A stretch of DNA of 64,000 bases, taken from positions 1,701,817 to 1,765,816 of the forward strand of contig MU006090.1 of assembly GCA_010093705.1 (NCBI GenBank). Reading direction: 5' to 3'. The DNA is from Patellaria atrata CBS 101060. Its lineage: Eukaryota. The translations under genes and the position numbers were made by a program. Shown in pieces: positions 4,250 through 64,000 of the stretch (its first letter is position 1; the number at the start of each line of letters is the position of its first letter). The notes under the pieces were generated by a model that saw only the letters and a list, made by a program, of their open reading frames with translations, did no database searches and was not told the origin of the DNA.

Positions 4250-4731
4250 GTCTGTGAATACAATGACTTTTTGGATACTGATTTGTTAGGAGACGATTTC
4301 ACTAGCATTCGAGGCATAAAAACTATCTAAGCGTGGTTTGAATGGCCTTAGTTGTACAGTCTAGTCGAGTTTGGCGTACCTTATAATATTTATCGATGGC
4401 TTTACTACTGAATTTCTTCCATCGCCTTGGCGGACGCTGCTCGGCTGTTATACGCTTGAGGTACGAACAATGCCGTACCTTTCACTATGATCCATGTCGA
4501 GATTTCAAGAACTGCCTCACTCAGAGTAGAGGCCTTCGTAAGCGTGCACGTAGAGGCAGCTATGAACACACGACCTGTACAAAGGTAAGGACTACTACCG
4601 TATTCAGCATTCTAAGTCTATCAAGTATTCATCCTCTCCCATCTAAACTTGAGCAGATTCAGCTCCTAGCTATGAGAAACCGCACGGACTTGAGTAGGCG
4701 AAGAACAGGGCTGTCCTTGATCATCAATCCT

Positions 4732-6354
4732 CTACCCCCATACCTCCCCATAAACATCCCCCCGCGCCCTCAACGGCACCTCCCTCCGCACCCTCTCAAC
4801 AACCCCCAAATCGATCTCCGCAACCGCGATCTCCGGCCCTCGTAACCCCTCTCCTTCCCTCAACTCCTTTCCCCCATCCACATCCACCCCATCTAACTCC
4901 GCAACAACTCTCCCCCACGGATCGATAATCATGCTCTTCCCGTAGGAAACCCGTTTCTCGTTGTGCCGTCCCACTTGCGCGGCGGCGATGACGTAGGTTT
5001 GGGTTTCGATGGCGCGGGCGCGGAGGAGGGGGGTCCAGTGCGCGTGCCCGGTTGGGAGGGTGAAGGCGGAGGGGTAGGTGAGGAGGTGCGCGGGGTGGTG
5101 GGGGTGGGTGCGGAGGGCGGTGGAGATGGTGGGAAAGCGGAGCTGGGGTGTTAGTGCGGTAGAGGGGGGTTGAGTGGGGGTGGGGATGATGGGGGAAGTG
5201 ATGGGGGGAAGTGACATGAGGAGTGATATGAGAAGTGATGGGGAAAATACTGTGGACAAACGATGTAGGTAAAGATGTGGGCAATAATATGAGCAACGAT
5301 ATAAGAAGCATATAAGGGATTGAGGAGACTTACATCAAAACAGATCATAAGACCGACGTTACCGAAGACTGTGGGGAAAGGAGGAAGGATGGAGGGACCT
5401 GGTTCGACGGAGCTAGAATTGGGTGTTAACAGTATTCGGGTAGGAAATACGGCATACGATACCTTACTTGCTCTCTTTGAGCACAGGACCGCCTTCGATC
5501 TCGACGTCGAAGAGATGGAGTTTCTGATATCTCTGTGCTATTTCCCCTTTCTCATCGATCCAGAGCAAGGTGTTCTTCACCTTCTGGCCTCCCTGCGCGG
5601 GTTCATGGACCCCGACGTTGATGCAGAGGTTTGCTTTCTGTGCTTCTTCCTGGAGACCTAGGACGAATTCGCTTTCTTTGACATCTTTGGCTAGAGAGAT
5701 GGTTTCTGGGCCTGAGGAGGCTATGTAATCGCTTGCTTCGGGGAGAAAGAGAGCCTGGTTTCCGAAAGACATAAGCCGGCCGCTTTATACCTTTTGGAAG
5801 GTTGGGACGGACTGACTTTGACACCCATTGAGACCGCTTTTTGCACGAGGAGGCGGCATTGTTGGAGATTGTGGGACATGCTTGCTGTTGAACATATTTG
5901 ACCTACGGCCTACCAACGGGCAAATAATAGTTAATTGAATGCTTAATGATAGACTAGAGTAGACTTTAGGTATTAGGTAAGGAATTCAAGCAGCCTCAAG
6001 ATACTGTAAGGATTTTGATGACTGTTAAACAATATATTGCATAAACCAGATTGTTGACAGGGAGTATAATTAGAATGGAAGACATAGTATAGGCGTAAGA
6101 TGATTTTCTTATCATGAGGAGAGACTTTACTATGAGCGATAAGGGTTAAGATGAAAACACTATAGCTAAAGTATTGTTTTAATCTAAGAGAGCGAGTTGC
6201 AGTGGAGTGGCTTAAAGTAATAGTCTTAGAACTAAGGTAAGTGCTAATAATAGTATGAAAACTAGGGAAAACTAGAAGACAAATAGGGAATAAGAGAGTA
6301 TTCAAACTACCATGACAAGAAGACATGAGGACTTTAACTTACTGCAAGTACCAT
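4732..6354 (-). CDS. NIT2: Nitrilase-superfamily amidase, Nit1/Nit2 (deaminated-glutathione amidase) type
   Basis: MVLA|AVGQICST start; catalytic E (FLPEASD), K (YQKLHLFD) and C (ICFD|LRFP); YPSAFT..TG.AHW..LLRARAIETQ. Exons 6354-6343, 5909-5817, 5754-5468, 5412-5334, 5142-4732. Confidence 0.9.
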
Positions 6355-6688
6355 TTTCGCAGGTGACACTGATCAGTGGTTCCAGAGTAGGATGGTACGG
6401 ATGTTGTTATCAGGACAACGGAGAGAATTACAAGAACCGGATGATGTGCATGAGAGTATGAGCAGCTAATAATTATTTATTTCTGGTCAAGGATGATATA
6501 ATGGATTAGCCTATTAATTATCAGTCCGATGATTACCTTAGATACTTTAGGCGAAAATGGTTTAGCATCCTTCCAACCCGGCCTGTTCTAGTTCCACCTT
6601 ATTGCTCTTCTGTCACTTAAACTTCTACAACATACTTTCTCTCTTCTAATCGCGCTCGTGATCCTTTCTTCAGCTGTCACTTTTCACA

Positions 6689-8899: not shown

Positions 8900-10210
8900 A
8901 TGTTAGGTATAACGAGTACAGAGAAGAAGTCGAAGTGCCTATTCACCACTTGTACAATACCCCTCAGCATAGACGAAAAACAACCACCAGCTAAGAAGAA
9001 GCCCTTCTCGACAATATTAGCTCATCCATTTTCACATACAGTTCGTGTCCTTATTCAACGCCTTAGGTAAATTCAACTAATTTTGGATGAAGGTAGACCT
9101 GATATTATCAGAAGAAATGTATGATCTGATACATACCCATTTAAACGGCGATAATGTGACACTGCAATACTCGAGGGTGTTTATGTCATTAAGCGACATC
9201 CTATTAGGGGACTTCTTCAACCAGTATATCAAAGAAGGTGCATCCCACAGTCAGGACTGTACTAATGTGGCATCATGTTGAACCTATATAGGGAATGTCT
9301 TGATGGTTTCTGAAGGCCACCCGGGAGTTGATAATACATTTACCCTTTCCAATGGTACTTCCCACATATGTTGGATTGGATTTTGCTACGTGCAAACTAA
9401 CTAGTGCCTAGGTATATTACGACTCGAACTCGACAGGGCAACGTACGAGCGATGTGGGTTAGTTGGTACTCCAATAGAAAGCGGTGCTAGGAAACATACC
9501 AAATCCCGTTATGGTACGGTCAGGTTCTGGGTTTTCGAAACATGCAATTGACTCACATATAGTTATTGAACTAAACCTTCGATTGCCATCCATGCTCCAC
9601 GGCAAGAAAGGGTTCGAAAGAATTGTGTGGGCATGTAAGAATGTTTTGAACCATTCTTTAACTTGGCTCTTCTACGACTTCGACAAAGGGAAGGATGAAA
9701 AGGGTAAGTGAGCTATAAATCATGCTCAGTTTTGCGGAGATCTAACGTATATTAGAATGTCCGATAATGAAACATCATCCCTTTGAAAGGACTGTAAAAG
9801 TGGATTGTTTAAGAATGAAGGGTATTGCAACACCTCCTTTGACAAATCCACATGTACCTGAAGACGAGGTATATGTTGAACAGCTGTACGAGTGGTTAGG
9901 CCTGGTCTCGTTGGATAGCCCTAGAATCTGCATCAATGACGGGATAGATCCTTACCTTAGCCGATATCAGGTGCCAGACTTTCAGGATGACCATGAAGTG
10001 GACGGCAGGACGAACTTAATGTCGAAAGATCTCGTCAGACTGCGTTGGCATGGTCTGATACCTACGGACTTCATCCTAAGTCTATTGCTCCTTACGATGC
10101 AGAGTGTGGATGAGGAGTGGATGGCACTGAATGTCTCTTGCTTTGGGAGCAAATCCTATACCATTCTCGGAACTGGATCTCAAGAAATGATGCTCTGGGA
10201 ATGTCCTTGA
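8900..10210 (+). CDS. RPP40: Ribonuclease P/MRP 40-kDa subunit (Rpp40 family)
   Basis: Six exons in frame (introns about 9041-9092, 9238-9291, 9355-9411, 9514-9562, 9704-9755). Motifs GDFFNQYIK, LRLELDRATYERCGL, LNLRLPSMLHGKKGFERI, EWLGLVSL..IDPYLSRY. Confidence 0.8.
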
Positions 10211-10267
10211 GCGATCTTGCAATGATCTTGCTTTTTAAACTGCTCTAAAATGGAACAATTTTCCCAC

Positions 10268-12542
10268 TTACGAACCCTGCTTTAATGCCCTAAAAGCGGC
10301 TACAGTCTGTACAACTCCCGTAACTAAAGAAAAGAGCGCCAAAAGGACACTCACAATCCCGAACCAAACAACGAGCCAAAATGTCCACCACTGCAGGCTA
10401 TCTCTCTGATCTTTCCACAGTTCCCTCAATCCTCTTGGTTTCTGCTTTTCCAGCACATAACCTAGGTATTTCATTCTCTCACTGAAGTAGGGGTATTTGT
10501 TGTACGTATCTAAGTTATGCTTGTGTCCGTACGCTAAAATGCCTTGCATCATTAAAAGCAAATCCTCGGGGTAGTAGCCTCCCTGCTCGTCTACAGCTAC
10601 GTCAAGAACTTCGCGGATAGGGATCCAACCCTTCTCACTTGCCGCTAGTCGCTTCGCCGCAAAGATTCCTGCGATATGGTGAGGCGCTGGAGCGTCTAAC
10701 CAGGTACGAAGAAGTGAGCGCACGGGCTCTGTGCGGTGGGAAAGCTCGGTTTGATCACGCTCACGCATGGAACTCGGCCGTAGTGGACGACCGCCGACCG
10801 AGTATTTGCCCGCGGCGCGAGCTATTGTCTCCTGCTGTTGCCTGTGTTTTGGTTCGATAGATCCGAAAATGTGCGCGTAAGTTTTGAGCAACTCTGTCAG
10901 CGTGAGTGTTTTTGCTCCACTAAGTCACCGCATTAGCATAGCTACATTCACATACTTTTCAAAAGTGGACTTACCGTGGTTGATGTGCTAGCAGTGTTGG
11001 ACACCAGAATACATAAATAATCCTATCGTCGACCCAGAGGTGCTCAGCTAGATTCGACGTCCACATCACGTTCCAGTCCTTTGAGATTCTCTGTACACTT
11101 TGTAGAGCTAAGCTCGCCGGAGAGAACTCAGCGGCAAGTCTTCGCGGCTCGGGGAGAAGGAATTTCTTCTCATCCTGATCATATATCATCGGTCTTCGAC
11201 CTTTTGGATCTGGGCGTGGTACATAAGTGAAGCCGTGATACTGGTCCCCAAGCTTGACTAATTGCGCCAACGACGGGGGATTGGATATCCCGGGCTCGTC
11301 GTTTACATAGTCCCGATTGAACCTTTCACCAAGCCAAAATAACGACTCGTGACGCAGATTGATTCGCCATTTATATCGTCCCTGGCCATCGAACTTTTCA
11401 GGCACGAGACCGGTTTTCATACATTGATTGGCCAATATGAGTTCGAAGCGGTCGATGACGGTGAAATTCGAAACCCCTCCCTTTTCAAGCTCTGGCACGT
11501 CTTGAGCTCTCTGCATTGCGAGACCCGTCTGAGCGAGGATCTTCAAGCCTTCGTCCCAGCCGAAGTTTTCGACAGTGTCGTGCCAGGGGCTGATGATATC
11601 AGAGGAGCGCCAAGCGTAGGGAGCAATCGTGCTTTCGAGGAATTCGTAGAGCCGTGGTGCATGCATGAGCTCGAATCGATATTGGGTGTCCTGTCCCATG
11701 GTTGGATGCGTTTTCTCGGAGCCGTACAGGCTGCACATCAGCTCAGTCGAATGCTCATCAAGAAGCTCAACGGTGAGAAGGTTGTTCTTATGGCGAGATG
11801 GGGCAGATGCGTTTAGTCCTTGTACAATCGCACTCTGCCAGTCTATTGTCCCCACTATGGCAGGTTTTTGACCCACCGGAAGCTTACTAGCGAAATATTC
11901 TAGAGGAATGAGCAGGGAATTGTACAAAGGTAGTTATTCGGGAGTAAATATACCTTTGTATTCTTTGACACCAGGATACTCCTTCTTCATGAGCGCATCC
12001 ATCTCTTCTCTCGAGAATACATTCTCGCCATAAAAGACGTTTGACATGCTGCTACTGCTCGAGGTTCCTCTAGAGGAGTCATCACTTTCGCTCGTATAAT
12101 CAGGGTACGACTGCCCCGTCCCTCGTCTTTTCATTCTTCTCCCGTGAATATCTGCCTCCCCTTCCTTGAACCCTCGATTCGACATTCGTAAAACTCGGCT
12201 CTTTCCTCGAGGACTTGAATACCATTCATCTTCTTCGTCCGAATCAAACCATCTGCGCCTGCATCCTCTATCAAGACCCCCCTTTCCACTTCCCTGACGC
12301 ATAGACTGGCCCGTCTCAACTCTCCTCAATCCATATTCCAAATCTTGCAAATCATCACTATCCCTGGCGGAAGAGATCAATTTTCTGAGCATTTCATTGC
12401 TATGTGCCATTTGACTGAGCATCTCCCCGTGCCACGTGACCATCTTTTCGAGCAACTGCTCTTGGGTGGGAAGTCGGTGCGGCGATTCAGTCATTTCTGG
12501 TGAGTGGCTGCGATCGTGGCCTGCTCTACTGGAAGTATTCAT
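10268..12542 (-). CDS. Uncharacterised fungal protein with a disordered N-terminus and a C-terminal transmembrane helix
   Basis: Three ORF-track pieces join in frame via introns 11900-11953 (GTATAT..TAG) and 10920-10974 (GTAAGT..GCTAAT..TAG). Motifs WTSNLAEHL and LWKDQRDSLQWWTFW precede a hydrophobic helix. Confidence 0.75.
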
Positions 12543-18542: not shown

Positions 18543-19629
18543 CCTTCTCACCCTGATAACTACATGAGGTTCATCGGAACCGTACCCTCTGACCCTCTAA
18601 ACATATCCGAATAGCTGGCTAGCTTTCCGGTCGGATCTCGTGTACTGTACACTATTGGAACACAGCCATGGTACTCGGTTACAATCCTTGTATTATCTTA
18701 CCCCTTTTCCATATCACAAAGTCTGTGCTGGAGATCCCTTCCTTTTCCTTTATTTAACACATGTTCCCACTGTCTCCCTTCTACAAGAGGCCACATCCCA
18801 TCCACAAAAAGTTCGCTGGAGTTTGTTTCAATCACGTCATACTGGCATTAGGTTGTGGTGTTTTTTTTTTGCTGCATGCGAAACTTTTTCTACAACTTTC
18901 TTCAGTTCCAATTGCTTTCCAATTCTCTTCTCCTTCGTTATGGGATTTAGGCATGTTTTAGACTTTAAAGAATTCCAACCCCACCTAGGCAAATAAACCT
19001 GGGTAAACTTACACATTTGCTTGCTTTTTTGTGGAAAACGTCTCGCGGTACGGCTGTTTTATCTTTGTAGGCGAAAGGAAGGAAGTAGATAGAAAGATCA
19101 ATTTCAAAACCTGCTACTCTGGGATTGTGGTGTCTCGTGCATCTGGGGCCATGGGGAAGAATATACACCTTGATGGATACCTCACCTCACTCCCGTCGTT
19201 CTCCCTGTTCGTTTTCATACCACGTGCGTCCACTCCTCATATACGTCCCTCGCTTTCATTTTGATACATGTGCATTCCTTCCGTTTTCATACGCGTACGT
19301 CACCCTCTCAAAACCTAATCAAGCCACACACCACGCGGAGATCAACGTATTGAGCACCATACTGCAAGATTAAGGCACAGTCTCAGAACGAGCCTTTAGA
19401 GCATTTCATGGAGTAGTGGAGTGGACTGTTAGGACGTGTCGTATTGTGTTACTGTATTATACTTCTAGATATTCTTTTTTTTTCACTTCTATCATTCAAA
19501 ATAGCCCAACGAACTCTTTCCGACACTCTTCTACGCATTTTTCCCCCGGGAACCCACCCTCCTCCCCATCTTCCGGCCCCCAACCCTCTCCTCTACAAGT
19601 TATGCTACATGCTTCGTTTGACTCGTGAA

Positions 19630-21074
19630 TTATTTACTCCCCGCCGCGACCGCAGCCTTGAGACTACCGACGACGGACAGGCAAATCAATGGGGAAATGG
19701 TATAAGACAACTGCGTGATGTGTCAGCACTCGAGAGCCTCCACATCTCATTTCTCCGCGAGGAGATCGAGGCAAGATAGTTGAACTCACAGTTAAAAACT
19801 TAGCGATACTCATTTTCTCCTCCTCATCACTGCCATTGACATCAGCCAGCGCGGTCAACTTCATAGCAGGGGGCCCGGTCGGCATGAGCATCATGGCGAA
19901 CCAGAGGACGGGGTCGTCACCGAGGACGGTAGTCTTGGTCACGAGGGCCCAGATGATAGGGATGGAGACGAGAGGCCAGAGGAGGTAGCGGACCAGCGTG
20001 ATGAAGACGACGGGCTTCCAGGAGACGGAGCCGCTCTCGTCGCCGCGCTTGAGGGCGCGCATGGCGCGGCTTAGCTTGACGCCGACGACGATGACCTGCA
20101 GCGCGGCGAAGAGGTCGCCGAGGTTCTTGATGCTGTTCGTCAGCCAGGCGTTGAAGTAGCCGCCTTCGTTGAAGTCGTTGAAGAAGAGGCGGTGCAGGGG
20201 CGGCGTCAGGCCGATGATGGCGCCGATGACGGCACCGATTAAAGGCGCGTTGAGGAATTGGAAGGAGTAGTGCGCCGTGTTTTGCGCCCAGGAGGGGAGC
20301 CGGTTGTAGACGTCTACGCCTTTGTTGTAGGTTTTTTTCAGCGGGGAGCGGGCGCGGTTGTGGAGGCGGTCGGGGAGAAGCGAGGTTTGCTCGTCCGTGC
20401 CATCGCCTTGACCTTCGCCGTCTGGGTCGCTGCCCTCTTCTTCATCCTCGTCTTCATTCTTCCTGTCTAGCTCGTCTGGCGCGTCCTCCTCTTGCCCGTT
20501 TAGGAGACGCGGCCCCAGCGCGAAGGTTAGCGAGTTGCTGACCATGGCATTCACCAGGAAGTATGACTTGGCGCGATCGACTGCGTCGGAGGGAGAGTCG
20601 GTGTCGGACATCAGGAGCTGGCCCAGGATACCTGTCGCAGAGAGGGCTTGGACGAGAAGGAGGGGGAGAGAGGTCGTGTTGTTGAACGCGATGGCGGGAG
20701 TGACCCATTTGGGCATTTTGAAGACCTTGGTAAAGATCACGCCAAAGGCTATCGAGAGGACATTATACATGATGGCCCACACTATTTGCACGGACCGGTT
20801 AGCGGTTATGTCAAAGACAGGGAGGATTTTCCGTACACAGCAGCGGGACATATCGCGTGGCAGTATCCAGATGGAGCTGAGACCCGACATTGGTGATGAG
20901 GAGAGCGGGGAGAAACATGCGCACACATGTTCTCGAGATGTCCTTCGCCGACGATTCTGAAAGCAGGCCGAATTGAGTTGCTATCACACCCCACAGAACA
21001 GTGAGAAGTACTGCTAAGGAGGCCTGTAGAGCTCCCAGGAATGAAGTTGTTAGACTACTTCCTTCCGACGACAT
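19630..21074 (-). CDS. Auxin-efflux-carrier (Mem_trans/PILS-like) membrane transporter
   Basis: About 10 hydrophobic segments around an acidic loop; motifs FLPALL, FNNTTSLPLLL, NAPLIG, PTGPPA. Exons 21074-20837, 20781-19790, 19710-19630. Confidence 0.85.
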
Positions 21075-24919: not shown

Positions 24920-24990
24920 TACGTGGGTTCAAAGTACGACATAGTCGGTGAAAGGCGTCTAGACAGAGTGAATTCTCCGTATACTTCAAC

Positions 24991-25548: not shown

Positions 25549-28281
25549 ATGCCTCAAGCATTGAGTTCTAAAGAGAACTCCTTGTTTAGGCAAGTAGTCA
25601 AAAGCTATGAGACCAAGCAATACAAGAAGGGTGAGTTAAGTTACATGTGCTCCTCCATATGATATCTGGTACGAACACGAGCTATGACACAGTCGTTAAT
25701 TATTCTTAGGGATCAAGGCCGCAGATCAAGTCCTTAGGAAGAGCCCTAACCATGGCGATACCCAGGCTATGAAAGCCCTCATTATGAATTCCCAGGGTCA
25801 CTCCGATGAAGCCTTTGCCCTGGCGAAAGTGGCTCTCAGAAATGATATGAAGTCACAAATCTGCTGGCATGTCTATGGTATACTCTATCGGTCACAGAAA
25901 AATTACGATGAGGCAATGAGAGCATACAGGACTGCACTCAGGCTAGACGGAGATTCTCAGCAGATACAGCGTGACCTGGCGATGCTTCAGATCCAGACTA
26001 GAGATTACGAAGGGTACATTGAAAGCAGGTTGACAATGCTGAAGGCAAAACCAAATACCAGACAGAATTGGACTGCTTTAGCCGTCGCACATCATCTAGC
26101 TGGGGACCTGACGAAGGCCGAAGACGTTCTAGTGAGATATGAGAACTCGTTAAATAATCCTCCACCCCGGACAGACTTAGAACACACCGAGGCGGCGCTT
26201 TATAAGAATACCATAATTGCGGAAGCCGGTGATTACCAAAGAGCGTTGGACCATATCGAGACTCTCCTGAAGCATCCTCTTGACCGAACAGCAGTCATGG
26301 AAATGAGGGCACAATATCTGCTAAAATTGGGGAAAAATGAAGACGCAGAGAAAGCTTACCGTGCTCTAATAGAGCGCAATAATGCATTCAGAGATTATTA
26401 TGACGGTTTAGAAAACGCATTGGGCCTGGACAGATTAAAGGAAGAATCAATAAATCGCCTCGCTGAGCTGTACGAGTCTCTAGCTAAAAAGGATGAGAGA
26501 GTAGATGCTCCCAGACGGATACCTCTCGATTTCTTACAAGGTGACACTTCTATCCCCTCTATGTCAACCTATGCCTAACATTTCATAGGATGTTCCTTTC
26601 GAAGTGCGGCGGACAGCTATCTTAAGCCTAGATTGAACAAAGGGATTCCATCTCTGTTTGCAAATGTGAAAGCGTTGTATAAAGATACTTCCAAACTACA
26701 AACGATTGAAGAACTTGTGAATAGCTACCTTGAAAAGTCTGCTATGAATGGAAGCGCAGAGGGGGAGACTAAAGCCGGGAAATCAGATAAGTTTGAGGAA
26801 TCGGTTTTGTACTTTTTGGCGCAGCATTACAACTACTTCTTGAGCCGTGATCTAGAAAAGGCGACATCTTTCATTGATCGGGCGCTTGAGAAGAATCCAA
26901 AGTCTGTGGACTTTAATATGACCAAGGCCAGGATATTTAAAAATTACGGAGACACTGAAAAGGCTGCGGCGGCAATGAACCATGCACGGGAGCTGGATGA
27001 GAAAGACCGATACATCAACACCAAATGTGCCAAGTACCAACTCCGTAACAATCAAAACGACGCTGCTCTGGAAACAATGAGCAAATTTACCCGAAATGAG
27101 ACAACTGGAGGTGCGTTGGGCGACCTGAAAGAAATGCAGTGTCTATGGTACTTCATCGAAGATGGAGAAGCCTTTGTGCGGAATGAGAAATACAATCTTG
27201 CACTCAAGCGGTTTCAGACTATCTACGATATTTTTGATATCTGGCAGGAGGATCAATTCGATTTCCACAACTTTTCGCTCAAGAAAGGACAGATCAGAGC
27301 TTATGTTAATCTCATAAGATGGGAAGACTACTTGAGAGGCCATCCTTTCTTTTCTAGAGCAGCCGTATCTGCTATAAAGATCTACATCCTCCTTCACGAC
27401 AGGCCCCATCTTGCATCGTTAGTGAATGGGGGCGCCGATTTCGAGAACTTGGATGAGAACGAGAAAAAGAAGGCTCTGAAAAAGGCCAAGAAAGAACAGG
27501 AGAAACAGGAAAAAGCTGAGGCTGAAAAACAGGCTACGAATAAGAAGACAACTGCTGATGGCGAAGTTAAGAAAGAGGACCTCGATCCCAAAGGCCTTAA
27601 ACTTCTACAGACGAAAGAACCTCTAGAAGATGCCACCAAGTGGGTCAATTTTGTGCTTCAGTTCAGTCCTAAGATGATTGAAGCGCAAAATGTGGGGTTT
27701 GAAGTCTATATCCGCAAAGGTAAATATCATTTTAGATAATCTAAGCAATGCCGTTGCTAAATGATCCCAGGCAAATACCTGCTCGCCACAAGGTGTCTGC
27801 TCGCAGCATCAAAGCTCGACCCTGAAAATCCCTCTTTACACGAACAGACTATCCGCCTACAGCATACCCGTAAGTCAAGTCATCCCATCCAAGCAATGCT
27901 GCTAATATATCAACAGTAAACACCCTCTCTGAACCCCTTGCCCCGAAGGTCTCAGAAGTGCTAAAAGAGACATTCAAACTTGTCCCCGCTGATACCTCTC
28001 TTCCATCTTTCAACGATTCCTTTTACGAAAGACATTCCCAGAGCGCACCCCACGTCCGCGCGGCCCTAAAGGTTCGCCAGCTTCTCACTGCGGACCAGTC
28101 CCGACCACAGAACGAGAAGGAGCTCTTGAATACCCTCTCATTTCCCACCGTCGCCTTAGCGGATGCGAAGGAAGGCCTAGCGCTCTTGAGCGAGTGGAAG
28201 AGTAGCCGAGAAGCGAAGGATGCGTACTTGGAGGCGGCGAGGAAGATCTGGCCGCAGGCAACGGTGTTTAAAAAGTCGTGA
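25549..28281 (+). CDS. NAT1: NatA N-terminal acetyltransferase auxiliary subunit (NAA15, TPR)
   Basis: MPQALSSKENSLF..YETKQYKKG, CWHVYG, DRYINTK, WQEDQFDFH. Exons 25549-25630, 25710-26540, 26589-27719, 27771-27869, 27917-28281. Confidence 0.95.
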
Positions 28282-28574
28282 GAGGGATGTTATGTCCTGG
28301 GGTATATATTGGGATTGGTACTTATACTGTAGTAAGCCGCAGAGTATCATAACAAAGGACGCTCCGTTTGAGAGCGGTGTTCATGCATAAGACTTGGAAA
28401 GAAACGTGTATTCATTCATTCCATTCCAGTTTTTCGTGGCGAGATGTCTCGGTAATTCTATATAGGGAGGCCCCCCTCGCCCATCATTCCGAACATGTCC
28501 CTTTCTCCTCCTCTCCCTCCTCATCTTCAACTTACTACTCCTCTCTCGCTCCTCACAGCCCATCGATCAGTCAT

Positions 28575-37758: not shown

Positions 37759-38338
37759 CCGGAAATTGTCAAGGAGGATTACGAGGACGCCTTGGAGGAA
37801 CTGGTCATATCCGTTGCGCGTTTCGCTGAAGGGTTCATGTGAGACTGAGCTCTGGGAATGTGACTTGAGGTGTAAGTACATAATTGTAGTGCGATGATTG
37901 GTTATGGGCAGGCATTTTGAGAAATGGATGATTGTTGCTACGAGTCGACGAGGCGATTGGTGTTTTACGAGCAATGACAACGAATGCTTTTTGTTATCCC
38001 ATGACTTGGGACCCTCGCGAGTATGCTCAATTGTTTCGAATCAGGTCTATGGTATGAAGAAACCAGTGATGATTCATTGCATAATATTAAACCGCTTTAC
38101 AAGGAACCTGAAGCTCAATATAAGAGAACCCAGCCAAACTCCTTAGTATTCAGCCATCCATCGGACAGACTCCATATGCTCATTTCCTCCCATCGAATTG
38201 AATCCGGTATGATAATTTTCTCTGCAACTTAGTCTAATAGTACACGGGGAAGAAAATTCAAATGATCGGTGTAAAGATTAGGAGTGGAAGCAGCCTGGTC
38301 GAACGGAGAGAGCCTGACAGACGCCATCTAGACGACGT

Positions 38339-40816: not shown

Positions 40817-43800
40817 ATGGCATTGGCGTCGGTATACATTCCCCTTACCCTGACAATTTGATAATAGTCCTAACATAGCTCTTAGTGGAAAGCATTCAAG
40901 TTCTTCGACGTCTCCCAGGTCAAGCTCCCAGATGACGAGAGCTCTTCCCTTTTCGCCGTATGGAAAGTCTCTGATTATGCCATAAAGCATTGCTGATACG
41001 ATGTAGCAAGGCAATATAACATGCATTGCCTCTGGTTCCGATAATGTCTTCTTCGGAAGCGCTGATGGTGTTATTCGAATACTGTCTAAAGCGTTTAAGA
41101 TCGTTCGGTCCTTCAAGGCACACGAAACCGGCTCGATCAATCACATAAAGCAAGTACAAGATACATCACTACTCGTAACTATTGCGGAGGATCTTTCCAA
41201 TGAGCCAATACTGAAGGTTTGGGCTTTGGATAAGCTTGAGAAAAAGACTGGGATACCAAGATGTCAGAGTACTTTGACTATACATAATGGACGCAAGCAG
41301 TTTCCGGTAATAGAAAGCTTCCTTATAAACACTTCCATCACTCATTTATCTTTCTCTAGGTCTCAGCATTCGCTGCTCTTGAAGATTTATCACAATTAGC
41401 GGTTGGCTTTGCAAATGGTACGGTAACTGTTATTCGAGGAGATCTGATTCATGATCGAGGCGCAAAGCAGCGTACTGTCTTTGAATCCAGCGAACCTATT
41501 ACCGGAATTACCTTTCGGGAAGGTAACATCACTACTCTTTACATTGCTACGACAGGGCGCATATCAACGCTTGTGATCTCTGGCCGTGGTCAAGGGCAGC
41601 CGGCAAAATCTCTAGAAGAAACAGGATGTGGTGTTGGATGCATGACAGTAGACAAAAATTCAAATGATATAGTTATTGCAAGAGATGATGCGATATACTA
41701 CTATGGATTAAACGGACGGGGACCGGTCATTCCAATGGAAGGCCCCAAGCAATCGATAACCATCTTTGGCGACTACCTAACCGTTCTATCTCCTCCTAAG
41801 ACGAATTCTGTTGCAAAAACAGGCGTATTCAGATCGTTCGGAAATGCCCGTGCCGATGACCCCTTTGAGACCTCTGCATTCACGATTCTAAATCCTGACT
41901 TAAAACTCATTGCTCACCAGGAGACATTATCTTCCAGGGTTAGACACATGTTCATTGAATGGGGTGATCTGTTCATTATTACAACAGATAACAAGGTTGG
42001 TCTAGTATATGAATACACTATTTACTTGCACTGAACGATCTCAGTTATTCAGATACCACGAGAAGACCTTTCAGCAGCAACTAGACCTATTATACCAACG
42101 TAATCTCTATGTCTACGCGATAAATATGGCGCAGAAAAGGAGCGTTGATGATCTTCAACGGAACGTCATCCTACGGAAGTATGGCGACTACCTATATTCT
42201 AAGCAAGATTATGATACCGCGATGCAGCAGTATCTTAAGGCTATCGATAATACTGAACCTTCTCAAGTCATAAGAAAAGTAACCTTACCCGTACTATAAA
42301 CCAAGTACCGTGCTAACGTGGAAATAGTACCTTGATACTCAACGAATTCATAATCTAATTGAATACTTAGAGGAGCTGCATGATCACCATCGAGCGACTT
42401 CTGACCATACAACCCTCCTCCTAAATTGTTACGCAAAGCTAAAGGATGTTGATAAGCTTGAACAATTTATAAAATCCCCCGATGACCTAAAGTTTGATCT
42501 AGACACTGCGATATCCATGTGCCGGCAGGGAGGATATAATAATCAAGCTGCATATCTTGCACGTAAACATAATGAACATGAACTAGTTGTAGACATTCTT
42601 ATCGAGGATTCATACAGATACGCAGAGGCTTTAGCATATATCTGGCGGCTAGAGCCGGAAATTGTAGGCTCTCTCCCGTCCTGACATCTATGCGTCGCTC
42701 ACAACTATTTCAGGCATATCCTAACTTGATGAAATATGCGACTGTTCTTCTTGAACATTGCTCCAAAGACACCACTCAACTCTTCATTGACTATTACACA
42801 GGACAGTTTAAACCTAGGAAAGATGCCGTTATTGTGCCGAATGCGCCTAGTTCCGAAGGGATAGGGGGTTTGGGTATGGGAATTGGGATGGCCTCTACTG
42901 CCGTGCAAAATCTTGCTGCGCTTCTTCCTCTCCCATATATGAATACAAGTGCTGTTGAGACTCCCGCTTCGACGGAAAATCAGCAGACGACTCTTAGCCA
43001 AGCACAGATAATCGAGACAGAAGCGGATGAACCACCTAGGAAATACAAAATACCCAAACCTCGTACCGCTTTCTCTGCTTTTGTCGATCATCCTCAAGAG
43101 CTTATCACTTTCTTGGAAGCGTGTTTGAAGTCAGAACAGCTCAGTGACGACGACAAGGTGAACCTATATACGACGCTGTTCGAAATGTATTTGCACATGG
43201 CAAATAGTAAGACTAGAAGTGGTAATGAGGAATGGGAAGTCAAAGCAAAACGCTTGATCGAAGGCAAAGACGTGAGTTTCCCTACTATTATCATATCAAC
43301 CAACAGTTAATCATGGATAGATACCGATCGATACATCCAACGTGCTCTTGCTATCCCACTTAGAAAACTTCCGCGATGGCTCCATCCTCGTCCGTGAACA
43401 GCAAGGCCTCCGCTTCGACATCTTCCGCTCCTATACTTCTGCAAAAGACACCCCCGGCGCCATCAGAGCGCTTCGCAAATACGGCCCCGAAGAACCACAA
43501 CTCTACCCCGCAGCCCTCGCCTACTTCACCTCCAGCCCGCAGATCCTAGCAGAAGCAGGCGACGAGCTCGACTTCGTACTTAAAAAAATCGACGACGACG
43601 GTCTAATGGCACCACTACAAGTGATCCAAACCCTCAGCACCAACGGCGTCGCCACAATGGGCATGATTAAAAAATACCTCTCCACCACAATCGAGCGAGA
43701 AAAACAAGAAATCAGCAATAACCGCAAACTGATCGAGACCTTCCGCGCCGACACGGCTTCTAAACTTAAGGAACTGGAAGACTTGCAGACTAAACCCGCC

Positions 43801-44106
43801 GCTTTCACCGCCACCCGCTGTAGCTCCTGCGGCTACCAGCTCGATCTCCCCACCGTGCATTTTTTGTGCAAACATAGTTTTCATCAGCGCTGTCTTAATG
43901 CGCCGCCCGAGGGGATGGAGGATGTGGAGTGTCCGATCGACGCGCAGCAGAATGCGCTTGTCAGGACGCTGAGGAAGGCCCAGGAGGAGAGTGCTGCGCG
44001 CCATGATTTGTTTCTTGATGCCTTGGGGAGGAGTTCGGATCGGTTTGGTACGGTCAGTGAGTGGTTTGGCAGGTGCGTTATGAGTGTTCCTGGCGTGGAG
44101 CAGTAG
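40817..44106 (+). CDS. VPS11: Class C vacuolar sorting protein Vps11/Pep5 (beta-propeller, clathrin repeat, RING-H2)
   Basis: MALAS|WKAFKFF, RGDLIHDRG, YGDYLY..EPSQVIRK, DHTTLLLNCYAKLKD, LDLPTVHFLCKHSFHQRC; multiple short introns. Confidence 0.94.
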
Positions 44107-44910
44107 GTATGTGGTTTGTGCTGTGAGGGAGTCTGGGGTCTTGTACCTGTACTGTATAAAGGAGAACCGAATAAGATCGAAATATGAGTAGGAAGTGTAG
44201 TTATTGATAACTTTTATTCCGTGTCAGAGTGTACAGTATGGCATGTATCCTGTGTTGTACTGTAACATAGCATAACCCACGAACGAGCCCTACTTCGACA
44301 AAGGCGATATGGCACAGAGGCTTTACTGTACCTGTATACTGAAGATGCTGGGCTAGTGGTACTGTACTCTTGATCGACAAATCTGAAGTAGATCTCAAGG
44401 GTACCTTTGTCTGTACGGTATATCTAGTTTACTGTACTGTACGTACAGCGACCAAGTGCCGCCTACCTTATGATTCCAGAGTGTCGAATCTTTTTGTTCC
44501 CATCAGAAGTTCGTGCGGTATCTTTAGGAACTCCGTCTCGAAGGTAGAGATTGTCCGGTCCATCTCCTAGAGCCATAAAACTTCTACCCATCCCGCACTT
44601 CTTCTAGGTAGTAGGAGCATCAAGCTTGCAGTGCGCTCACGATGAACAAGGCTTCAACCTTGAGAGTCCCAAGCAAACAGCAAATAGTAACTCATCATCA
44701 CCAAGCAATGTGAGAAGTAAAATAGGCGTAAACATGCATATTATTCTTCATTTATAATAATTCCTCAAACCGACAACACAGCGGACAATTGATTTTTCCG
44801 AACCACCAAGGTTGCAAATCTGCAACAAAACTCCTCGTCCGAATGGTGCCCGCGGCACAGGAGAAACAATACCTATAGCTCAACTTACTTTATTTCCTCT
44901 CCTCTCGGTC

Positions 44911-47119
44911 TTACATGCTAACCTCCACTCTACCCTCAGTACCGGGCGGTCCGCTGGCCAAGTTGGGCAGGAGGTAAGTGATATCGTCCCAGGGATGCCT
45001 GTAAAGGCCTGTCCTCAACCTCTTCTGATCCAAGAAATGGGCGATGAGACCGATACTCCTACCCAGGACGAAGAGGCCGTTGAGCACGCCCATCTTGAGG
45101 TAATCTTCCGCTTCTTCTGGGGAGAAGGCGCCGCAGTTGCGGAGGAGGTCGACGAAGGAGACGGCGATGCAGCCATCGACGTTGAGGATGAGATTGTCTT
45201 TCTTGGAAGTGGTGACCGTTTCGACGGCGATGGCGTAGTCGAGAAGCTTGGTGTTGGGGAAGTTCTTGTGGACGAATTCTTTGACAAGCTCGACACGGAG
45301 ATCGGGGTTGTTGCGGGATTTGACTCTGTGGCCGATACCAGGGACTAGGGAATAGATTAGCGAGATGAAGCATTTTCTTAGAATCGAATGGACATACTAA
45401 GCTTGTTCTCCTTCCTCATAGTGTCGACGAAGTCACGTGGGCTGAGACCCTTGTCGTATGCTCGGGTGAACTCCTCCGCGGCACCATCCAAAGCGCCACC
45501 GAATCGGGATCCGATAGTCAACAGACCGCTGACCAAAGCAGAGATTAGATCTTTGCCGGCTCTGGTAGTGATGATGGTATTCATCGCGCCAGACACGGCC
45601 GGACCGTGATCAGCCGTCAACATGAGCACCATCTCGAGGAAGCGGCTGGCATAATCTGGGAGACGTCGGCGGAACCACAGGAGGGACATAACACCTCCGA
45701 TTCCAATGTTCTCCTTGAAAACATCGGAGATGGGCATACCAGCGTACAGCAATTCTTGGCCACGGTCATCGGAGATGGTGGAAATGAAAGCTGCTGGCTT
45801 TCGGATGAGCCCGAGCTCTTGTGCCCACGAGTAATCGATGGGAATCTTGGGAACAGCAGGCTCCGGCTTTGGTTTGATAGTGCCATCTTTGAGCAGTTTC
45901 TGGTATACCTGCGCCAACATCTGCGGCATTTCTTCGAAGGTGTCAGGGACGAAGAAACCGGCTTCCTTCATCGACTTGTTCTTCGCCGCCGCAGTTTCCA
46001 ATTGTGAATTGGCGAATGAACCAGCATGGCCGAATTGTACCTCAGTCTTCAACATGGAAGCAACCGTACCAATGGCCCAAGCAACGATTGGCTTGGTGAT
46101 CTGGCCAGACTTCACGGCATCAATGACGCGGTATTCTTCAACACCACCAACTTCACCAAGCAGAAGCAGGACTTTACACTCTGGATCTGCCTGATATCGC
46201 AGCATATGGTCGATGAAGGTTGTTCCCGGGTATCTGTCACCGCCAATGGCAACACCCTCGTACACGCCGTCCGTAGTGTTTGCAATAATGTTGTTCAGCT
46301 CATTTGACATACCACCAGATTTTGAAACGTATGCTACGGAACCAGGTCGATAAAGCTTGGAGGCTACAATGTTATCCATCATACCACCGGTATTACCGAT
46401 CTTATAGCACCCGGGTTTGATACCACCGACGGTAGCAGGGCCAATAATGGTAATACCCTTCTTCTTGGCGACATGTAGGATCTCACGAGCGCGCCTCTCG
46501 GGGACACCTTCAGCAATGATGGCAATTGACTTGATTTGCGGGTATTCCATTAGCTCCATAGTCGATTGGTAGACACTACGTGACGACGCAAAGTTGACAA
46601 CGGTATCGACGTCAGAATGCTTAGCCATAGCCTTCTCGACTGATTGGTATACGGGTAATAGAGTTTCGCTCGTACCCCAGTACCTGCAAAATTGTCAATT
46701 GCCTATCCCACATTTCGAGAGTTGGCGGTGAGTGCAGTAAAGCTTACATTTTGCTGACGAATTGTCCACCAAAAGTGTAAATAATGCCCGCGACGGACGG
46801 AGTCTTGCGCTTGCAGATGAAATCGAAGTCGAGCATTCCCTGCACCGCTCTCGGTTGGAGACCACTGTCGAACGAACACTGTCAGCGGATGTTTTCTTTT
46901 TGTGCGAGTTGGTACTTTCTACTGCTGTTTGGGGAAACCCTACTAGACGAAGCATCGTGTCTTATTATGGAAGAGTGTATGTTCAGCGCGAGGGCTCAAT
47001 GGCCGACTTGGAGCTGCGAAACGGCGAATATTGTCGTTGGCAGAGAGACCACCATCCGTTGAGGTACCTAAGGTAGTGCCATTGGGCGTGCCGTTGGTTT
47101 CGGGGACTGCGGAGGGCAT
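44911..47119 (-). CDS. ACL1: ATP-citrate lyase subunit 1 (catalytic His, citrate-synthase-like C-terminus)
   Basis: [54 protein letters not shown]. Exons 47119-46944, 46864-46748, 46683-45398, 45344-44911. Confidence 0.97.
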
Positions 47120-53087: not shown

Positions 53088-53643
53088 TCGGTACGTTTAT
53101 GTATCGCGGCTCTTCCTCAAACCAGGTGTCTCTTTCCTACCGTAAGCTCCTCCTTTCATACTGTCTCGAACTCTATAATACAGGAGAGAGAAGAAAGTAG
53201 GAGGCGCTCGAATATCATAAAGATAAGCAAACTACTAATATGGATATGCTTATTATATCCCTACCCATCAATGTGTCTGTGACTCCATTGTACAGGTACT
53301 TCGTAAAACATACTGCGGCCTCCCAACTGCACGATTGGAGGCTACAGATGGCTGAGGGTGGTTAATACCGCGGGTAGCGGTTTCCTAGTTGTTTGTTCAG
53401 GAAGTGAATAGAGCTTCAGCAATGGGAACTTTGACAGGAGGGATGGTAAGGCGTCAGGTCATTAACATTTGAAATTTTTCTATCTAATGCATCTAAACTC
53501 AAGCTCAGATACAAAACTAAGGTTACACAGCTCCCATCTATACTCCTAACCCAAAAAGATATTTGAAAACAAAAATCCTTCGTATTTGCCCCCTTTCCCT
53601 ACCCCTTTTTCTTTACTTCTACTACCTTCCCCGTCATCCCCCT

Positions 53644-54663
53644 TCACTCCTCATAAAACACCAAACACCTAACCTCAATACTCTGCCTCCCCGGCGCGTC
53701 CTTCGGCGTCTGCGGATCCATGAAAGCCGTATGCGGCGTCCTAACCGCCACGCCCTCCCTACCCCCCGGCAACCCCTCCCCCCACGAATCAAAACACTTC
53801 AACAACATAACCTCATCGGGTCTCATATCCTTAACATAGCAAAACCGATGGGCATCGTTCGCCGCCACCGCCAACGTCTCCCCCTTAACCTCATACCCGG
53901 CCGTCGACGTCACGCTCTCCGGATCCGGCAGGATTTCCTTCCCGCGGTCGTCGTCGTCGTGCACGCTATCCGCCCGCGTCGGGTACAGCAGATCGACGGG
54001 GACGAAGTCCGACGGCGAGGTACTGCGCCAGTCTACCACGGCCAGGGGGAAGTCGCTGGCGGCGTGCGCAATCGGCCGCCACACGTTCACGATCTGGAAC
54101 CGGCGGCCGGACCGGAGCACTTCCTCTGCTTCTTGCGGGGGAAGATGCCGGCGCACGCGCGCCGCAGCCGCGCTGGGGGATTGGTCCACGTGGACTTGCT
54201 GCACGGGCTGGCGCGGGGCGTCCTTGTTGCGGCGGCGGATCGTGTGGTCGAAGATAACGACTTTGGAGATGCCGGGGTGGGAGTCCCGGAGCAGGTTTTC
54301 GATTTCGGTGTAGTAGGGTCCGCGGACGTGGGTGTCGGAGGTGAAGGAGGAGGGGTCGCTGGCGGAGGGGGAGGAGAGGAGTTGGAATCCGGCGTTTGTG
54401 GTCGTGTAGAGGTGCGGTGTGGGTCGGATGTTGGTTACGGGGCGGGTGTGCGCAGTTTGGAGGAAGGAGGTCCCGGGGCCGTCGACTTTGGACCAGGGTT
54501 TGCCGGTGTAGGATGTCGTGTCGATGTGGTGGAATGTTGCGGTTGTCATTTTGGGGGTGGTTGTGGAAAAGGGGCGGGGATGGGTATGTGTATGGCGGTG
54601 GGGATGGGGTTTTAGGGCTTTGAAGATGTTGTAGGTTACTGATCTTTTCGGTTGGACACTCAT
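53644..54663 (-). CDS. CmcJ/AsaB/GA4-desaturase-like putative Fe(II)/2-oxoglutarate oxygenase, intronless
   Basis: Family motifs FDHTIRR, VHVDQS (HxD), NVWRPI, PLAVVD, TPHTAF (distal His), RQSIEVR. Confidence 0.85.
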   Translation of the reverse strand: MSVQPKRSVTYNIFKALKPHPHRHTHTHPRPFSTTTPKMTTATFHHIDTTSYTGKPWSKVDGPGTSFLQTAHTRPVTNIRPTPHLYTTTNAGFQLLSSPSASDPSSFTSDTHVRGPYYTEIENLLRDSHPGISKVVIFDHTIRRRNKDAPRQPVQQVHVDQSPSAAAARVRRHLPPQEAEEVLRSGRRFQIVNVWRPIAHAASDFPLAVVDWRSTSPSDFVPVDLLYPTRADSVHDDDDRGKEILPDPESVTSTAGYEVKGETLAVAANDAHRFCYVKDMRPDEVMLLKCFDSWGEGLPGGREGVAVRTPHTAFMDPQTPKDAPGRQSIEVRCLVFYEE

Positions 54664-54864
54664 GGATTATTTCTTTATCGGGGTTGTGTATTTGAATGAG
54701 ATTTATGTACAATGGCTTTATATACAACGGTGTTTTGTTCAATGGCTTTGAAATACGGAAATGTTATAAATCTGAACGTTTATAATAAATCCGAGATGAC
54801 GCCATGGTTAGGTATTCCGCTCTGGATGTGATTCGGTCGAGACTCGGATCTGTAGATCTCGCGC

Positions 54865-60389: not shown

Positions 60390-61493
60390 ATGTCGACATC
60401 CTCACAAGTTGCAGAATCGTGGATCGCCTCCTTCTGCGGCCTACTCGGCCATGAATACTTTGCAGAGGTATCAGAAGACTTTATAGAAGATGACTTCAAC
60501 CTCACCGGTCTCCAGTCACAAGTACCTATGTACAAGGAAGCACTAGAGATGATATTGGACGTAGAACCTGAGGATGAGGATGAAGATGCAGACGAAGATG
60601 ATGAGGACGACGATGACGACGACCTTCTAGGCGACGAAAACAACGACAGCAAAAGCGGGTTTCAAAGAAATAACCGCAGACACCTGCGCATGGCGAGCGA
60701 CCTTAGCGTCATCGAAAGCTCTGCGGAGCTCCTCTACGGCTTGATACACCAGCGCTACATCACCTCACGCCCCGGAATCCAACAGATGCTTGAGAAATAC
60801 GAATTAGGACACTTCGGCTCCTGCCCTCGCGTTTACTGCTCCAGCGCCAAGGTCCTCCCCGTCGGATGCTCAGACACCCCAGGCCAAGAAACCGTCAAGC
60901 TATTCTGCCCGCGCTGCCTAGACGTCTACACGCCACCAAACAGCCGCTTTCAAACCGTTGATGGCGCCTTCTTCGGCACAACGTTCGGCTGCCTCTTCTT
61001 CATGACCTTCCCCGAACTCGACATCACCCTCCCCAAGGCGGACCGCGAAAACCTCATTATGACCGGCACTGGCTCCTCCATATCCGTCGACACGCGCCTT
61101 TCCTCCTCTTCCACCACCGCGTCCGGGGCTGCCGCGTCCTCGAGACCACAGGTCGCGACCATTAACGGCGTCAGCCCGGCCAGTCTGGCTCCCGGCTTGG
61201 GACAAGGGAATATCTACGAACCCCGCATCTACGGTTTCCGCGTCTCGGAAAGAGCGAGGTCCGGCCCGCGGATGCAGTGGCTGCGCTCTAAACCTGTGGA
61301 TGTCACCGAGCTGGATGAATCTCGTATCTATCAGGAGGAGAGGGAGGAGATGGCGGCTGAGGACCAGGCGATGCTGGATGCGGATAGCAGTCAGCAGGCG
61401 AGGAGGAGGGAGGGGGGACGAAGACGGAGACCGCAGGTTAATGGGAATAAGAATGGGGATGGGAGTCCGATGGATGCTGAGGGTGGCGGGTAG
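60390..61493 (+). CDS. CKB1: Casein kinase II regulatory beta subunit, intronless
   Basis: [18 protein letters not shown], acidic loop, [20 protein letters not shown] zinc finger, DGAFFGT, PRIYGF. Confidence 0.96.
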
Positions 61494-61988
61494 TGAAGAA
61501 ATGTTGCGAAATCGTAGGGATGGAATGCGCTATCAGGTCTTTTAAAAGACTACTCGAGGAACGGGGGAGAAGGTATTGTTTACGATTGGATGATGGGGAT
61601 GTTGCTACGTACTATTCCACGAGCATTCCATACGGACGAATGGGGCCATGGCTGTTATAAAGGAAGAAGTGAGATATTTGCTAAGGGGTCGGATATGTGG
61701 GTTTAAGGTGGTTGCATCATGGCGTTCCGAGCGCGAAGTGTCACTTAGGTCTTATGATAAGCTTTCAATATGACGAGAGCTCCGCCCGGGCCTCCCGTAT
61801 GGAAATTTTTCTATTTTAATTCTTTTTGAGACCCGTATTTTCTGACCCGGATGATGGAAACGGTAGTGTACTGTACAAACCCCTTCTCTCACGCTCGCTG
61901 CTTACATGACTGAGAATAAGGGACGGGGAGGACTATCCCTACGCCTACGCCTAACCCTTTCACCTCCCCTACAACTACAAACACCAAT

Positions 61989-64000
61989 CTACCCCCTCCG
62001 CCACTCCTTCCAACCTCCCTCCCATCCAACACAAACCCCCCACCCCCTCCTCGCCTCCCCCTCCGCCCTTACCGCCTCCGCCTCCCTCCCCAACGCCCTT
62101 AACGCCTCCCCCGCAAACCTCAGCGCCCTCACAGTCTCAATATTAATCATGCCCTTACTCTTTCTCAAATCCAACCCCCTACCCCTCTCAACGTCCGTGT
62201 GGCCGAAATTCCGCAACACCTCGAGCGCATACTTGAGGGTCTTGGCGGGATGGCGGTGGGCGCGCCAGGCGTCGCAGAGCCAGATGGAGGGGTGCACGAG
62301 ACACAACCTCGGCAGGGCATCAAATTTTGGGGAGGGGTAGAGGAGCGCGAGTTGAGTAGTCAAGCGCTCGACGGAGCGGATCGTCGAGGTCGGGATGAAG
62401 GAGGAGAGGGAGCCGGCTGTGTCTGCGCCCGTGCCTGTGGCGTGAAGGGGGTTCGACGGAGCGTTGGACGCAGACAGTCCGCCGCCTTTACGCATGACGA
62501 CGGACTTGATGGTTTGGAAGAGCTGGTCGCGCTTCCCGCGGAGGGTGGGCCCGTCGGACTTCTCGGCGAGACAGAGCGTGCAGCCGCATTCGAAGCCCCA
62601 GCTGTCGGCGTAAACTTTTTGGCGCTGCGACCAGTCCGGCCCGGGGGAGACGTATTGGTGGGTTAGCTCTTCGCCGGCGGGGATGTCCCGAGTGGCGCGG
62701 ACGAGCTGATGGGAGCCGAGGAAGGCGCGGGCGGTGTTGGGGGTGCAGGAGTGGTTGAGGAAGGCGGAGCGAGGCCAGAGGGCTGTGGTCAGGCCGGCTG
62801 TCGATTTGGAGAAGAGGTTGTGGATTACGGTTAGGGAGTGGAGGGGCGCGTTGAAGCAGTTTGTTACGCGGATGGATTCGATGAGGAAGCTGTGGTCGGA
62901 TGTTAGAGGGTCGTTTTAGGAGAGAGAGAGGGAGTATTGGGCGATGGGTGACTTTGAGGGTGGGAATAGGAGATTTTCAAACTTACATGTCTATGACTGG
63001 GACGCCGTCGATTAGTATACCTTCTTTACCACTACGAGGATAGTTTCCGGCATCGAGAGCTAGAAAATCGGCGTTTAGAGATGGGTTGTTGTAGAGTTTG
63101 CGAATCAAGCCCCTGAGCAATGCAGCACTGGATGCAGGAAACACTCTGCCGTTATTGACGTTGAAGAGAACTCTTTCGCTTTCATCATTCGCGGAATAGG
63201 TATTCGGTAGATAAAAGGCTTTTTCGCATAACACAAGTTCACCTGCCTTGATATCGCGAGCTGCAAATGTGCCTCTGCCGTAGTACTCCGTTATACCCAC
63301 CTTCACATCTGCGGAATAAGTCGCGTTGTCGAGGTGAACGTTGCGGTTTGTGAGGGTTGAGCTCATAGCCTTGAAATCGTAACTACCGCCCTCTGCTTCG
63401 GCTAGGCGGGAGTTTGAGCGTTGGAGATCCTTTTTGAAGCTCGAATTCTTGGGATTAAGTTTTGATGCTGCTTCAAAGTGTTTCTTGCCTCGTTCGTACT
63501 CCTCCAACTCGTAAGCTGCTCTGCCAGCAAGGTGGTGAGCCTTTGCATCCGCAGTCCCATCTCCAAAAACCGAAGCAAGGGCGTCTGACTCCGTTGCGTC
63601 GAATCGCTGAAGTAGAAGATTTACCCCTGCACGCTTGCGATAGACATCACTTCGGAAAGCTTTGTCCTCCGATGATGCTCTTGATATGGCCTGAGAATAG
63701 CTATTATATCATTAATCAAATGCATCGATCGGTTGTGTTAACATACTCACCATTCAAGTGCACGAAAGTACTGTTTCGCCAGATATGCCTTGTCTCCAGC
63801 TTGTTTATCATCTGAAGCAGTCCTTGAGAGATTTTGATCTGGTTTTCTTAACTTTTCCGGGATGAACGAACTACCTTCCTCCAATATCAAAAGGTCTGAT
63901 GGATGATCCACCCGTATCGCGTAGTCTTCGTCCCCATTATACTTATAGAATGGTTCTTTGATCGCGATAAAGTCGTTTTCCGCAATGAAGCAATCCAGAG
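61989..64000 (-). CDS. TPR + SET-domain lysine methyltransferase (SMYD-like); 5' end outside the window
   Basis: TPR-like helices; GRGTFAARDIKAGELVLCEKAF; after the ~62890-62986 intron, FLNHSCTPN..RATRDIPAGEELTHQY..WGFECGCTLC (SET and post-SET). Confidence 0.85.

Follow-up and report, generated by a model that had tools for sequence, protein, structure and literature searches.

The window analyzed here is a 64-kb stretch of the 28.7-Mb assembly of the fungus Patellaria atrata CBS 101060 (contig C2, positions 1701817-1765816), and it contains GC-rich islands in which the top strand is first C-rich and then turns abruptly G-rich. These C-to-G islands are real, occur genome-wide and are nearly confined to the ends of convergent genes. 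They share a location in the gene, a two-fold symmetry and a short range, affect several classes of sites with a strand-asymmetric substitution pattern, and change the encoded protein. The best relatives of two proteins from the window were found in Dothideomycetes (70-82% identity), and most of the gene names and strands given in the original prediction for this DNA were backed by Pfam.

C-to-G islands at convergent gene ends

A sample of 664 kb from four contigs of the same genome was surveyed with an annotation-free island caller, stricter than the scan of the window, and with a self-trained gene finder written for this analysis, which retained 242 genes with 110 codons or more. Among the 83 C-to-G islands called, 62 were located in the final 900 bp of a gene that faces a convergent neighbour (300 permutations: mean 22.9, maximum 35); a further 10 were at tandem ends (mean of the null 16.6) and 11 elsewhere. 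GC peaks displayed a C-to-G flip at their centre in 56 of 67 cases, and the flips were frequently paired, about 1 kb apart. In genes of at least 800 bp, the GC content of four-fold degenerate sites reached at least 0.6 in the last 800 bp of 49 of the 98 convergent ends and of 4 of the 80 tandem ends, and in long genes the end exceeded the body by 0.159 at convergent and by 0.038 at tandem ends. An independent sample of 39 further 10-kb stretches of contig C1, outside the training set of the gene finder, gave 19/50 convergent and 1/37 tandem ends at this threshold (p 8e-6); its 40 islands comprised 22 at convergent ends, two at tandem ends, 10 at edges and six others. The flip itself was larger at convergent than at tandem ends (0.47 vs 0.21, p 0.001), a difference that was not significant in the replicate (0.39 vs 0.19, p 0.11).

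The same pattern was obtained when genes were aligned at their stop codons without any selection of islands. Toward the stop, four-fold GC rose from 0.44 to 0.62 in 134 convergent ends, and the GC skew changed from -0.41, a C-rich peak located 600-800 bp before the stop, to +0.18 in the last 200 bp, with +0.10 past the stop; the coding strand of convergent ends is thus G-biased at its end. Four-fold GC was steady at 0.40-0.48 in 102 tandem ends, where the skew went from -0.29 to 0.00, so that tandem ends as a class retain a weak flip. Introns of convergent ends changed from -0.24 to +0.13 with little gain of GC, while those of tandem ends stayed near zero. Coding 5' ends were flat, with a four-fold skew of -0.04 to -0.21 and GC of 0.40-0.45 over the initial 1.2 kb in 69 long genes.

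Two technical causes were considered. Outside the window, the predicted convergent genes had 118 exons, of which 48 gave Pfam matches in the predicted strand and frame, the other 70 being unconfirmed. Nine of the 10 convergent pairs with both genes confirmed carried an island (matched by hand), and on this partial confirmation a shadow-ORF error of the gene finder was rejected. Illumina contigs from two DNA runs of one sample, possibly the source of the assembly, agreed with window positions 17000-36999 except for one minor variant, and the four islands in that range are therefore not assembly errors. Assembly gaps had a flanking GC of at least 0.58 in six of 15 cases, with no clear pattern. 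Three local observations were made alongside. Inside the MON2 island, in its G-rich arm at 29102-29192, the contigs of one run fragmented into pieces of depth 113-128 against 318 in the flanks, which may be a sequencing dropout. A 33-bp match with three differences to another contig of the same runs lies between LARP1 and the auxin-efflux-carrier-type gene (AEC) at 19385-19417, possibly a small dispersed repeat, and a 34-bp tandem repeat of 2.6 copies lies between the Fpg-like gene and NAT1 at 24998-25086.

In the window, flips were scored with 400-bp arms against 100 order-4 Markov simulations. All nine C-to-G stretches originally proposed were present: eight scored above the simulation maximum (0.156-0.328 vs 0.126), and that of NAT1 exceeded it with 300-bp arms only (0.157 vs 0.150) and was missed by the stricter caller. 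The list had overlooked a tenth, weak island in ACL1, which shows no flip at four-fold sites. Independent gene models returned the same convergent pairs, seven of eight with islands, and the same island-free exception (Table 1). Skew flips with no rise in GC were also found outside the islands: one was located at 35835 in a tandem 3' end (35630-36244; GC 0.51, four-fold GC 0.43), and others at 2106 and 12366 (GC 0.47-0.48).

Table 1. Islands of the window and the convergent pair that served as internal negative (positions are those of the window)
Feature	Coordinates	Gene strand	Flip centre	Four-fold GC	Remark
NIT2-like gene, facing BAT	4715..5452	-	4975	0.72 (end)	
RPP40 / orphan, convergent pair	8900..12542	+ / -		0.46 and 0.46	no island; internal negative
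AEC, facing LARP1	19180..20389	-	~19863	0.85 (end)	GC remains high until ~20800
NAT1, 3' end	27766..28318	+	~28110	0.60 (body 0.48)	weak
MON2, 3' end	28471..29530	-	28826	0.87 (body 0.38)	doublet with NAT1
PIR cell-wall gene, facing YRA1	36592..37971	+	37487	0.59	includes a 66-bp PIR coding repeat
VPS11, last exon	43280..44241	+	43855	0.72 (body 0.38)	
ACL1, 3' end	44737..45370	-	~45065	0.65 (body 0.47)	weak partner island
PF27522 gene, whole single exon	53480..54763 (gene 53644-54549)	-	54033	0.88	
CKB1, 3' end	60729..61714	+	61231	0.75	
SET/TPR gene, 3' end	61933..62972	-	~62230	0.83 (body 0.46)	doublet with CKB1

Anatomy and substitution spectrum of the islands

The island centre was located at a median of 323 bp before the stop of its own gene (quartiles 251-455, n=61). 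Its position varied less relative to this stop (standard deviation (SD) 154 bp) than to the midpoint of the junction (209 bp) or to the stop of the partner (328 bp), a ranking somewhat favoured by the 900-bp cut. The two arms co-varied within a gene (rho 0.47, n=98), while arms of partners across the junction did not (rho 0.02-0.08); the unit is therefore one gene end, and a junction-centred G-to-C unit was rejected. The islands had been described as a property of junctions, which stands for their convergent location but not for the unit.

Four-fold GC was 0.70-0.83 at island centres and 0.43-0.45 in gene bodies. The skew was 0.45-0.49 near the centre, most of it was gone by 750-1000 bp, and 0.02-0.09 remained beyond 1 kb (to 4 kb). 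The substitution pattern is best described on the inward strand, the strand that points 5' to 3' into the island centre (the top strand on the left and the bottom strand on the right). On this strand C occupied 0.48-0.58 of the four-fold sites as compared to 0.18-0.25, and at third positions outside four-fold boxes C/(C+T) was 0.81-0.82 vs 0.50-0.55 and G/(G+A) 0.37-0.49 vs 0.50-0.55; these centre-aligned figures are inflated by the way islands were called. Inward C rose in all 15 neighbour contexts shown. Left arms were rich in C (and A) and right arms in G (and T). The GC bias is thus not a strand-symmetric weak-to-strong one, as inward T-to-C is favoured and A-to-G is not.

The individual islands displayed the same asymmetry. 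The left arm of the NIT2 island had C 0.48 and G 0.10 and its right arm G 0.46 and C 0.11, the latter continuing through a long intron (5143-5334) with 80 G and 12 C among 192 bases. This intron contains a 12-bp G-rich tandem array (5187-5243). The left arm of the SET/TPR island had C 0.51 and G 0.08. Non-coding sites at matched distance displayed the same C-over-G skew with less GC (inward GC 0.50 vs 0.74 at four-fold sites). The substitution process originally proposed, which is localised and strand-asymmetric, has two-fold symmetry and goes with convergent ends, is supported at four-fold, two-fold, intronic and intergenic sites. None of the three outcomes originally named as refuting it was obtained (flips not significant over shuffled controls, as common at tandem or divergent junctions, or lacking at synonymous and intronic positions). 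In the 664-kb sample, introns within 500 bp of island centres were longer than others (median 76 vs 55 nt, 37 vs 401 predicted introns, p 2e-5), which could reflect a bias toward keeping insertions or an artefact of the gene models.

The process reaches the protein. The C-rich half of the PF27522 gene has 138 conserved columns, and it deviated from 119 homologues at 28 of them (homologue mean 9.4, maximum 21); 19 of the departures were toward C-rich codons and three toward G (p 0.0009), a net shift unmatched by any of the 119 homologues. The other half deviated at five of 106 conserved columns, with no trend. In VPS11, the eight departures were too few for an amino-acid polarisation to be informative.

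Possible origins of the islands

The islands appear to behave like the footprint of recombination hotspots. The reading that we favour, with a little less than even confidence, is that they are left by stable break hotspots located beside cohesin and axis sites, with strand-biased repair of heteroduplex DNA. The centre of a long-lived double-strand-break hotspot would lie within the convergent gene, about 300 bp from its 3' end; in yeast, cohesin and proteins of the meiotic axis accumulate at sites of this kind. After resection, the inward strand would always be that of the recipient on both sides, pairing with donor sequence. If donor-copying repair depends on mismatch recognition, a recipient C (in C:C, C:A or C:T) would escape replacement more often than G, T or A of the recipient opposite a donor G (G:G, T:G, A:G). 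C would be driven up on the inward strand of both sides, giving C-rich and then G-rich sequence on either strand with a GC peak at the centre, and an extra, ordinary GC bias would be required to reach the observed sizes. On the inward strand, donor-directed repair would then favour C at the expense of G and T, and A at the expense of G, which would match the data. We infer breaks at the centres, axis proteins at these sites, the direction of repair and the ranking of C:A, C:T and A:G mismatches; the A-to-C step would follow general rankings of mismatches. A drive centred on breaks is suggested by the two-fold symmetry, the tract-sized range, the GC peak at the centre and the fact that conserved residues are lost.

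Published work provides several of the required elements. Conversion runs from the intact to the broken chromatid with an efficiency that varies with the type of mismatch, and yeast tracts have a median of 1.8-2 kb (Lesecque 2013, PMC3649680). C/C mismatches are repaired 3-5-fold less well and G/T best (Mancera 2011, PMC3218862). Doublets of Red1 occur at convergent and not at tandem 3' ends in yeast (Sun 2015, PMC4530585), and 1,435 of 2,578 hotspots of the Dothideomycete Zymoseptoria are exonic (PMC5844332). The assembly encodes, by gene presence, a Spo11-family protein, two kleisins (Rad21 and Rec8-type) and six MutS loci. Two MAT-alpha HMG-box matches were found (C7:22440-22820 and C3:341799-341981); the breeding system matters for any conversion drive. 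Plain GC-biased conversion, one of the causes originally suggested, does not fit an inward strand that favours T-to-C and not A-to-G. Damage to resected 3' tails would be expected to give the opposite polarity.

A comparison set of 80 metagenome loci around ACL1 displayed similar flips in many lineages; of the island in L139, the G-rich arm was retained by L091 with a local identity of about 80%. VPS11 was near ACL1 in only three long loci (L062, L069 and L123), so the VPS11/ACL1 junction of the window is not widely conserved. Near-identical strains of two other fungi gave four clear ends of shared haplotypes, which is a hint of exchange: their distances from island centres were 27, 288, 300 and 1267 bp (P ~0.007), three of the four being no more than 300 bp. 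L139 and L140 differed at two positions in 6 kb and then at 240 in 15 kb, with the onset in the left arm of the island. Among strains L098-L101, minor alleles against the local bias outnumbered the others within 400 bp of the centre (59 vs 36, p 0.023) and not outside (36 vs 37). The density of single-nucleotide polymorphisms was higher in the arms than outside in two to three of five groups, a confounded comparison. A 1.3-kb insertion in one strain (L098:3617-4943) adjoins an island arm and a haplotype boundary. Homology between L108 and L111 (96% identical) stops at about 4500, where a strong island centred at 5290 follows closely on the right, by rearrangement or misassembly.

A number of points weigh against strand-biased conversion. 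The four ends of shared haplotypes were picked after the data had been seen. Four further boundaries were left out of this test, one for a 328-bp segment at an edge and three in pairs of less than 1% divergence. Metagenome assemblies may also be mosaics that switch strain at GC-rich dips of coverage, and all evidence on exchange and allele frequency comes from fungi other than the host species. With wider arms the minor-allele counts were 68 vs 46 and 74 vs 52 (p 0.049 and 0.061), and the excess in arms over outside was not significant (Fisher p 0.12-0.63), the sites being linked. Of the 80 metagenome loci, 32 that were non-redundant and had a length of 9 kb or more were pooled over mixed species with rough gene models. 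Their convergent and tandem ends did not differ, with four-fold GC of 0.606 at both and p 0.06 for the flip (p 0.33 without the ACL genes). The islands displayed no trend along contig C1. The gain of GC at non-coding sites, far below that at four-fold sites, is unexplained by the conversion model without selection. Yeast breaks occur at promoters and not at axis sites (PMC4530585), and in Zymoseptoria GC-biased conversion is described as very weak or absent at the 10-kb scale (PMC5844332).

The main rival is mutation linked to transcription, which we regard as possible but rather unlikely. Near convergent ends, the outward strands would be exposed by transcription in both directions, by R-loops or by the stalling of polymerases, and damage would make these strands G-rich. 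Outward-strand damage may act by A-to-G and C-to-T deamination, and Rev1 inserts C opposite abasic sites. The observed polarity is predicted, the outward gain of A-to-G with a mild loss of C suits deamination, and the anchoring of the centre to the gene's own stop and the uniformity of islands along C1 would be expected. In the other fungi, convergent partners of ACL1 and ACL2 flipped more often than the ACL genes (10 vs 1 of 30 pairs at a score of at least 0.75; Wilcoxon p 0.043), although codon selection in ACL could mask a flip there. Convergent transcripts overlap in 79% of yeast pairs (PMC4530585), and a transcription-phase mutation regime was proposed by McLean and Tirosh (PMC3315797). 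However, head-on collision would yield G on the left and C on the right of the junction with co-varying arms of partners, which do not co-vary, and the model requires that a centre within the coding 3' end acts in both directions. The strength of an island was unrelated to codon-based proxies for expression of the own or partner gene (rho between -0.13 and 0.14), and the minor alleles lean, weakly, against the bias and not with it.

Selection for a property of DNA or RNA, such as folding of mRNA or of overlapping transcripts, G-quadruplexes, nucleosome placement or polymerase pausing, seems improbable. It would account for exonic silent sites gaining more GC than introns and untranslated regions, and the weak asymmetry of minor alleles is equally compatible with selection and drive, but conserved residues are lost. 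Selection for hairpins or folding was rejected, as folding energy equalled that of 25-nt local shuffles in six of six islands (|z| <= 1.1), and so was a true inverted repeat, none above 24 nt being found in the four islands tested; the self-complementarity is compositional only. Even less probable is the meeting or stalling of forks at a fixed terminus, where a C+A-rich leading strand, as in yeasts, would give an upward jump of GC and TA skew. The composition of the arms and the small residual skew at 1-4 kb agree with it, and yeast termination sites have upward jumps (PMC3459929), but most of the skew is lost within 1 kb, islands occur once per 8 kb and often as 1-kb doublets, and the rise in GC is left with no reason. 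Replication from fixed origins, another original suggestion, would here go with a leading strand rich in G and is very unlikely: the polarity equals the jump at bacterial and human origins but is opposite to the C+A-rich leading strand of three yeasts (PMC3459929), the range is short with no multi-kb decay, and the centres are too dense and lie inside coding exons.

Relation to known systems and significance

Opposite GC skews at the 5' and 3' ends of fungal genes were reported by McLean and Tirosh (2011, PMC3315797), who left the cause open. As in the islands, the coding strand there is C-rich and then G-rich toward the stop, and the skew reaches four-fold sites, untranslated regions and amino acids. 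Their skew is a gene-wide average regardless of neighbour, with a C peak at the promoter and a negative relation to GC; the islands are 1-kb units with a GC peak, a C peak 400-900 bp before the stop and flat 5' coding ends. Neither the split between convergent and tandem ends nor GC islands are described in the accessible part of that account. Their fourth group, with a small G-biased 3' region, may be a gene-averaged shadow of the islands.

Hotspots of GC-biased conversion (PMC3649680; PMC3218862) resemble the islands in their tract-sized GC peak that overrides protein constraint; the textbook bias is strand-symmetric, weak in yeast and with hotspots in promoters, whereas the islands are strand-specific and in coding 3' ends. 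The cohesin and Red1-Hop1 axis sites of yeast (PMC4530585) likewise occur at convergent and not tandem 3' ends, as doublets. A stronger signal on the side of the more weakly transcribed partner may be a further common trait; the ACL partners point to it, the expression proxies in the host genome do not. The axis sites are known as a pattern of protein binding, for which the accessible text reports no footprint in base composition; they are not break sites in yeast, and their spacing follows transcript overlap, unlike the island centres, which follow the gene's own stop. For Umbilicaria pustulata, a lichen fungus, 'GC-rich inverted repeats' were described and interpreted as repeats and a sequencing nuisance (Tzovaras 2020, PMC7186782); these 1,464 stretches are self-complementary, have a median length of 819.5 bp, reach 79% GC and embed genes such as DHFR. 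Judged by analogy, they may be the same thing as the islands, which are self-complementary in composition only. A description of convergent-specific skewed GC islands in fungi was not found in the literature at the level of titles and abstracts, with subscription journals thinly covered.

New here are the replicated convergent-end rule, the single gene end as unit, the strand-specific spectrum and the first hints of exchange at islands. A gene-averaged skew of unclear cause becomes a set of discrete sites with a sharp rule, which places them in convergent ends at some 320 bp from the stop, and this rule is applicable to any annotated fungal genome or population data set. It is possible, though doubtful, that hotspots could be read in this way from a single genome and that the gene-end skew of 2011 and the repeats of the lichen are the same footprint. 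If the conversion model is true, it would imply a strand-asymmetric conversion drive and a position of hotspots opposite to that of yeast. Whatever the cause, codon use and amino acids are biased in about half of the convergent gene ends, and this bias is relevant to analyses of codon bias, selection and phylogeny.

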